From Escherichia coli (GTDB lineage: Bacteria; Pseudomonadota; Gammaproteobacteria; Enterobacterales; Enterobacteriaceae), in assembly GCF_051903065.1 (NCBI RefSeq), contig NZ_CP178438.1: a DNA stretch of 64,000 bases, one strand, 5' to 3'. The notes below the pieces were generated by a model. That model had not been told where the DNA came from, did no database searches, and saw nothing but the letters and a program-made list of their open reading frames with translations. A program made the position numbers and the translations under genes. Every line of letters starts with the position of its first letter. Within the stretch, counting starts at the first letter, position 1. This document shows, in pieces, positions 33,700 to 34,176 of the stretch.

Positions 33700-34176
33700 T
33701 TAACTAAACATCGCGGTAATCGATGCGCTTGCCAGAGAGTGGAAATGAACGTTAAACCCGACCATCGCGCCGCTGGCTCCTTCATCGACATCAATACGCT
33801 CTACATCCAGCGCGTGAACGGTAAAAATGTAGCGATGGGTTTCGCCTTTCGGCGGCGCTGCGCCATCGTATCCGGTTTTACCAAAATCGGTACGCGTCTG
33901 CAAAACGCCGTCTGGCATTGCTACCAGACCAGAGCCAAACCCTTGCGGTAATACGCGGGTATCAGCGGGTAAATTAACAACTACCCAGTGCCACTAGCCG
34001 GAGCCGGTTGGCGCATCCGGGTCGTAGCAGGTGACGACAAAACTTTTCGTTCCCGCAGGAACATCATCCCACGCCAGATGCGGTGAAATATTATCGCCAT
34101 CGTAACCCATGCCGTTAAAGACATGACGATGTGGCAACTTATCGCCATCGCGCAGATCATTACTGATGAGTTTCAT
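33700..34176 (-). pseudogene. ybhB: ybhB (PEBP/RKIP-family protein) with in-frame amber stop
   Basis: Track ORFs 33994-34176 and 33700-33918 are one frame split by TAG at 33994-33996, where I recall Trp in K-12 YbhB; downstream sequence [29 protein letters not shown]... stays in frame. Confidence 0.85.

Follow-up and report, generated by a model that had tools for sequence, protein, structure and literature searches.

YbhB of Escherichia coli K-12 (1FJJ, 1VI3) is a member of Pfam family PF01161, and its gene has bioA and the lambda attachment site as neighbors. To our knowledge the gene has no established function, and its homologues are reportedly dispensable in laboratory culture. The window analyzed here, by which we mean the whole 64,000-nt stretch of E. 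coli DNA, carries ybhB at the same locus, and the protein that it would encode with codon 61 repaired is identical to K-12 YbhB at 157 of 158 residues (~99%), the one difference being V125I. Two features nevertheless set it apart from the K-12 gene: codon 61 reads TAG and not TGG, leaving residues 1-60 as the expected product, and a TnpB pseudogene parts ybhB from bioA.

A second comparison is offered by the classical amber mutants, such as those of lacI and phage T4. As in those cases, a single transition made a UAG codon that a tRNA with a CUA anticodon could suppress. Unlike them, the ybhB allele is of natural origin in a wild isolate, is not located at a Dcm CCWGG hot spot, and was found with no detectable suppressor; moreover, supE or supF would give Gln or Tyr, and not Trp, at a position occupied by an aromatic residue in three close PDB homologues. 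We consider it very probable that the allele is a lineage-specific amber mutation, ybhB W61*, which is inherited within a small E. coli clone and inactivates the gene.

The interrupted ybhB frame

The gene lies on the minus strand, and its parts, together with those of the insertion element beside it, are as follows.

33700-34176, minus strand: ybhB pseudogene (PEBP/YbhB-YbcL family, annotated as 'kinase inhibitor'), 158 codons, one of them an internal stop, by translation
33994-33996, minus strand: premature amber codon TAG at codon 61 (ancestral TGG, Trp61), by direct reading of the sequence
33995 (gene-strand position 182): mutated base, T on the plus strand and A on the gene strand, where relatives have C and G, respectively
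33997-34176, minus strand: N-terminal residual frame, residues 1-60, the sole product likely to be made in any amount, from the ORF list (ORF 33994-34176, 60 aa)
33700-33918, minus strand: downstream in-frame ORF of 72 aa starting at Met87, from the ORF list
34177-35511: IS200/IS605-type remnant of ~1.28 kb, between ybhB and bioA
34285-35401, plus strand: frameshifted TnpB/InsQ pseudogene, by PGAP annotation

Around the stop, the minus strand reads GAT GCG CCA ACC GGC TCC GGC TAG TGG CAC TGG GTA GTT GTT AAT TTA CCC. The ORFs at 33994-34176 and 33700-33918 share one frame and are parted solely by the TAG at codon 61, with translation uninterrupted across the rest of the 158 codons; the initial annotation had taken them for a single ybhB frame split by TAG, and this was borne out. 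Its statement that K-12 has TGG at this position also proved correct: codons 59-63 of the K-12 gene read TCC GGC TGG TGG CAC, and the sequences of both K-12 crystal structures show GSGWWHW where the stop falls. The premature in-frame stop stands at a sense codon of the orthologues and is one base change away from it, as is typical of a nonsense pseudogene.

With codon 61 repaired, the 158-aa protein matched the Pfam PBP profile (PF01161) with E = 3.1e-42 (144.6 bits against a cut-off of 24), spanning profile positions 6-135 of 135. The surroundings were those expected of ybhB, with bioBFCD/bioA on one side and ybhC and attB-lambda on the other, and locus and near-identical sequence together establish orthology to E. 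coli ybhB. The frame for the whole PBP domain is, however, interrupted by the TAG at codon 61. The 60-residue fragment aligned to profile positions 6-40 of 135 only, retaining the DPDAP segment and lacking the WWHW and THRY segments, and residue 61 itself is W or F in three close PDB homologues. The ybhB locus is a pseudogene of the family and not a functional PEBP member, and the ORF at 33700-33918 is a by-product of the split and no independent gene. We also considered whether re-initiation could supply a useful C-terminal protein, and rejected this: according to the ORF list, the first in-frame start codon (ATG, GTG or TTG) downstream of the codon-61 stop is Met87. The ORF that begins there aligned to profile positions 69-135 only; its product would be the remaining half of a single-domain beta fold and was judged non-functional.

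The sequence of events that we propose begins with a spontaneous G->A change at the second base of the Trp61 codon (TGG->TAG) in the recent ancestor of the clone, within which the mutated allele has been inherited since. Release factor 1 would be expected to end translation at the UAG of codon 61, yielding a 60-residue fragment from which over half the PEBP beta-sandwich should be missing. Inactivation of ybhB by this truncation is the expected outcome, because only the first 60 residues would be left and most of the PEBP fold would be missing. The loss is plausibly neutral, or nearly so, since the gene is without an established function and its homologues appear dispensable. A deamination hot spot at a Dcm 5-methylcytosine was rejected as the origin of the change, because the context on the complementary strand is CCAGC and not CCWGG.

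Polarity, inheritance and rarity of the TAG allele

A 601-base query around ybhB matched 5418 of the 5426 complete E. coli genomes in the collection (5403 of the 5426 over at least 80% of the query and at an identity of at least 95%). The nearest relative with an intact ybhB, ECNB21-M121, differed from the window across these 601 bases at position 33995 only, and over 40.6 kb the two differed at 6 sites, the ybhB change among them. Comparison with the alleles of related strains therefore gives TGG in K-12 and in ECNB21-M121 and TAG here, and the single G-to-A change that had been claimed for this position is confirmed as all that separates ybhB here from the intact ECNB21-M121 allele, relative to which the gene carries no secondary damage. 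An exact 61-mer centered on the TAG occurred in 2 of the 5302 matching complete genomes, the best of the remainder having one mismatch. Both the undamaged state of the gene and the rarity of the 61-mer support the view, put forward in the initial annotation, that the inactivation is recent.

The two genomes with the TAG allele, 23CRST027 (NZ_AP045789.1) and 23CRST031 (NZ_AP045800.1), were assembled separately, and both isolates came from human faeces in Santo Domingo, Ecuador. Their ybhB is identical to that of the window, the TAG included. Over 64 kb, the window was identical to 23CRST027 except at position 14281, and over 40.6 kb it was identical to 23CRST031 except for one base. At 14281 the window has G, like ECNB21-M121, whereas both 23CRST genomes have T, a synonymous difference in modE (Thr136). 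Because it has kept the ancestral G at this site, the window genome belongs to the clone as an additional member, distinct from both 23CRST027 and 23CRST031. Looking up the exact 60-aa product also retrieved the draft genome GCA_036912935.1 (and 4 similar places), in which the bioB-bioA-TnpB-ybhB stretch is base-for-base identical, again with the TAG. The allele is thus heritable across independent assemblies, namely those of 23CRST027, 23CRST031, the window genome and GCA_036912935.1.

In both 23CRST genomes, PGAP/RefSeq assigns ybhB to the pseudogenes on account of its internal stop, under the product name 'kinase inhibitor' (AC6IZ1_RS05475, AC6I2E_RS13495). The inactivation is therefore already recorded in public annotation and is an ordinary event: ybhB W61* adds one more strain-specific pseudogene in a dispensable gene, and as such it matters little. 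The TAG SNP can nonetheless be used as a marker of the clone, and the clone represents a natural ybhB null that can be compared with the near-isogenic ECNB21-M121 for a phenotype of bacterial PEBP proteins.

An internal stop also disrupts another gene of the window, a DUF3969 family pseudogene (48863-49240, plus strand), in which it follows codon 37. This second pseudogene is older than the ybhB mutation, because ECNB21-M121 has it too.

Suppression, sequencing error and selection

Amber alleles of the supE, supF, supD, supP and trpT types were sought in the 5426-genome collection, and in 23CRST027 the sequence at glnV was itself read. The tRNA queries were judged accurate, in that wild-type genomes matched them with exactly one mismatch, and the supE44 allele, serving as a positive control, retrieved 155 records, among which all 25 that were listed are laboratory or K-12-type strains (C600, DH5alpha, DH1). 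The exact Tyr-CTA (supF-type) allele was present, among the 5426 genomes, only in the laboratory strain OV2, and serU-CTA (supD-type) only in DSM 498; leuX-CTA gave no full-length match, and trpT-CTA gave none. Among the strains listed, supE-, supF- and supD-type alleles were confined to laboratory or K-12-type strains, and no natural isolate of the collection had a CTA-anticodon allele of Tyr, serU, leuX or trpT. In 23CRST027, glnX and glnV both have the anticodon ctg and glnW and glnU both have ttg, all of them wild type, as are the seven tRNAs of the window itself, five Lys(ttt) and two Val(tac). The check for supE/supF-type alleles that the initial annotation had proposed therefore yielded no amber suppressor tRNA, either in the sister genomes or among the tRNAs of the window. 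PGAP annotates no tRNA feature under the allele matches in OV2 and DSM 498 or under those of supE44.

Stops elsewhere in ybhB were counted by looking up truncated products as exact matches in a public collection of 15 billion proteins, with lengths that no single substitution produces serving as controls. As the control lengths show, truncation at contig ends adds noise to these counts.

W36* (35 aa): 150 contigs
W61* (60 aa): 55 contigs
W62* (61 aa): 40 contigs
W64* (63 aa): 773 contigs, probably owing mostly to contig breaks
Q78* (77 aa): 36 contigs
Q93* (92 aa): 25 contigs
Control, 58 aa: 0 contigs
Control, 59 aa: 23 contigs, short contigs only
Control, 62 aa: 0 contigs
Control, 64 aa: 280 contigs, short ones only, i.e. 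contig ends, and probably dominated by contig breaks
Intact YbhB (158 aa): at least 1000 contigs

Eight of the 55 W61* contigs (L008-L015) were read, and they revealed independent origins of the stop on at least four other backgrounds. In L009, L012 and L013, TAG stands in a K-12-like ybhB haplotype that is free of the TnpB insertion, and in L010 it stands in a haplotype 22 differences away. L008 and L011 have TGA at W61, as does L015, where it is of separate origin. Among the backgrounds read, the W61 stop was thus TAG three times and TGA twice.

If the UAG were usefully read through, whether by an amber suppressor tRNA or by near-cognate decoding, full-length functional YbhB would still be made. 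Basal read-through occurs at any UAG in E. coli, and the frame beyond the stop is fully intact, as if it were still in use, although a recent mutation explains this equally well. The remark in the initial annotation that the codon would be read through in an amber-suppressor background is true in principle; it finds no support here, with CTG in glnV and glnX of 23CRST027 and no CTA allele of the Tyr, serU, leuX or Trp tRNAs in the 23CRST genomes. No CUA-anticodon Gln, Tyr, Ser(serU), Leu(leuX) or Trp tRNA exists in the sister genomes, and any suppressor would insert Gln, Tyr, Ser or Leu where the homologues have W or F. We know of no dedicated UAG decoding system in E. coli, such as the pyrrolysine system pylTSBCD. 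The codon-61 stop is followed by U, a context favoring efficient termination, and its rarity (2 of 5302 genomes) is unlike that of a programmed recoding site; at such a site the stop would be conserved across orthologues, whereas the others read directly, K-12 and ECNB21-M121 included, have TGG. Useful read-through is accordingly a most improbable reading. So, in our estimate, is the proposal that the true base is G, with ybhB intact and the TAG a product of sequencing or assembly, for which there is hardly any chance. The call does hang on one base, judged from assemblies and not from reads; both exact matches among complete genomes stem from the same study and place, and a systematic consensus error of one laboratory is conceivable for the two 23CRST genomes. 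Yet the same base was found in those two separately assembled isolates and in the window genome, itself set apart from both by the base at 14281, as well as in the unrelated draft GCA_036912935.1, with 4 further similar places. The site lies outside homopolymers and contains neither a Dcm CCWGG nor a Dam GATC motif. A random consensus error at 33995 is very unlikely, because the base is present in independent sequences, and the data do not show a sequencing error at this position, which the initial annotation had named as what would refute its reading: four genomes have the base in common.

On a further reading, selection favored the nonsense allele because losing ybhB is adaptive, and the recurrence at W61 could reflect parallel evolution. 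The independent W61 stops on at least four other backgrounds speak for it. Against it, the other transition-accessible codons (W36*, W62*, Q78*, Q93*) are hit about as often, and each allele is rare, 5300 of the 5302 complete genomes being without the exact TAG 61-mer. With the W61* count in line with those of W36*, W62*, Q78* and Q93*, we rejected W61 both as a mutational hot spot and as a case of clear parallel selection. Such counts are consistent with random G->A and C->T changes, sampled on a very large scale, in a gene under weak constraint. We accordingly give very little credence to an adaptive loss, and it is likewise very doubtful that the recurrence at W61, together with the stops at every other transition-accessible codon, signals positive selection for ybhB loss in some host-associated lineages. 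If true, a selected loss of ybhB would offer a handle on the function of bacterial PEBP proteins. An inherited amber mutation that is plausibly neutral, or nearly so, is the reading that we prefer.

Insertion and prophage remnants around ybhB

The TnpB remnant next to ybhB was inserted exactly between the ribosome-binding site (Shine-Dalgarno) of the K-12 ybhB gene and its ATG, and the end of the element provides another GGAGG, located 7 nt upstream of the ybhB start. In K-12, where the insertion is missing, the bioA-ybhB gap measures 58 bp. The insertion at ybhB was found in 341 of 5419 complete E. coli genomes, UPEC 536 for example, and was absent from K-12, BL21 and O157. Among the carriers that were listed, ybhB is intact in ECNB21-M121 and has an ordinary annotation in EcPF40 and UPEC 536. 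The insertion is therefore an older polymorphism and not by itself the cause of ybhB decay; being old and widespread, and compatible with an intact ybhB in ECNB21-M121, it was also rejected as a cause of relaxed selection on the gene. A scan for promoters and terminators around ybhB found no more sites than shuffled sequence did.

On the other side of ybhB, the lambda att core GCTTTTTTATACTAA is present in two perfect direct copies, at 27279-27293 and 33595-33609, where 0.01 would be expected by chance. The copies flank an island of ~6.3 kb between ybhC and ybhB (27279-33609), which contains a truncated tyrosine integrase, an IS481 transposase, a hypothetical gene and a trio of GtrA-like, GT2 and DUF6056 genes. 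The island has the look of a lambdoid prophage that has decayed at attB-lambda but kept genes for O-antigen glucosylation (gtrABC-type). Lambdoid prophage tail genes directly adjoin ybhB in L009 and L013, two of the W61* contigs that were read.

Farther along the window, and according to the annotation of the sister genome, an IS1A copy (60621-61318) lies between rhlE and dinG, directly upstream of the type III effector gene espX2 (61540-63552).
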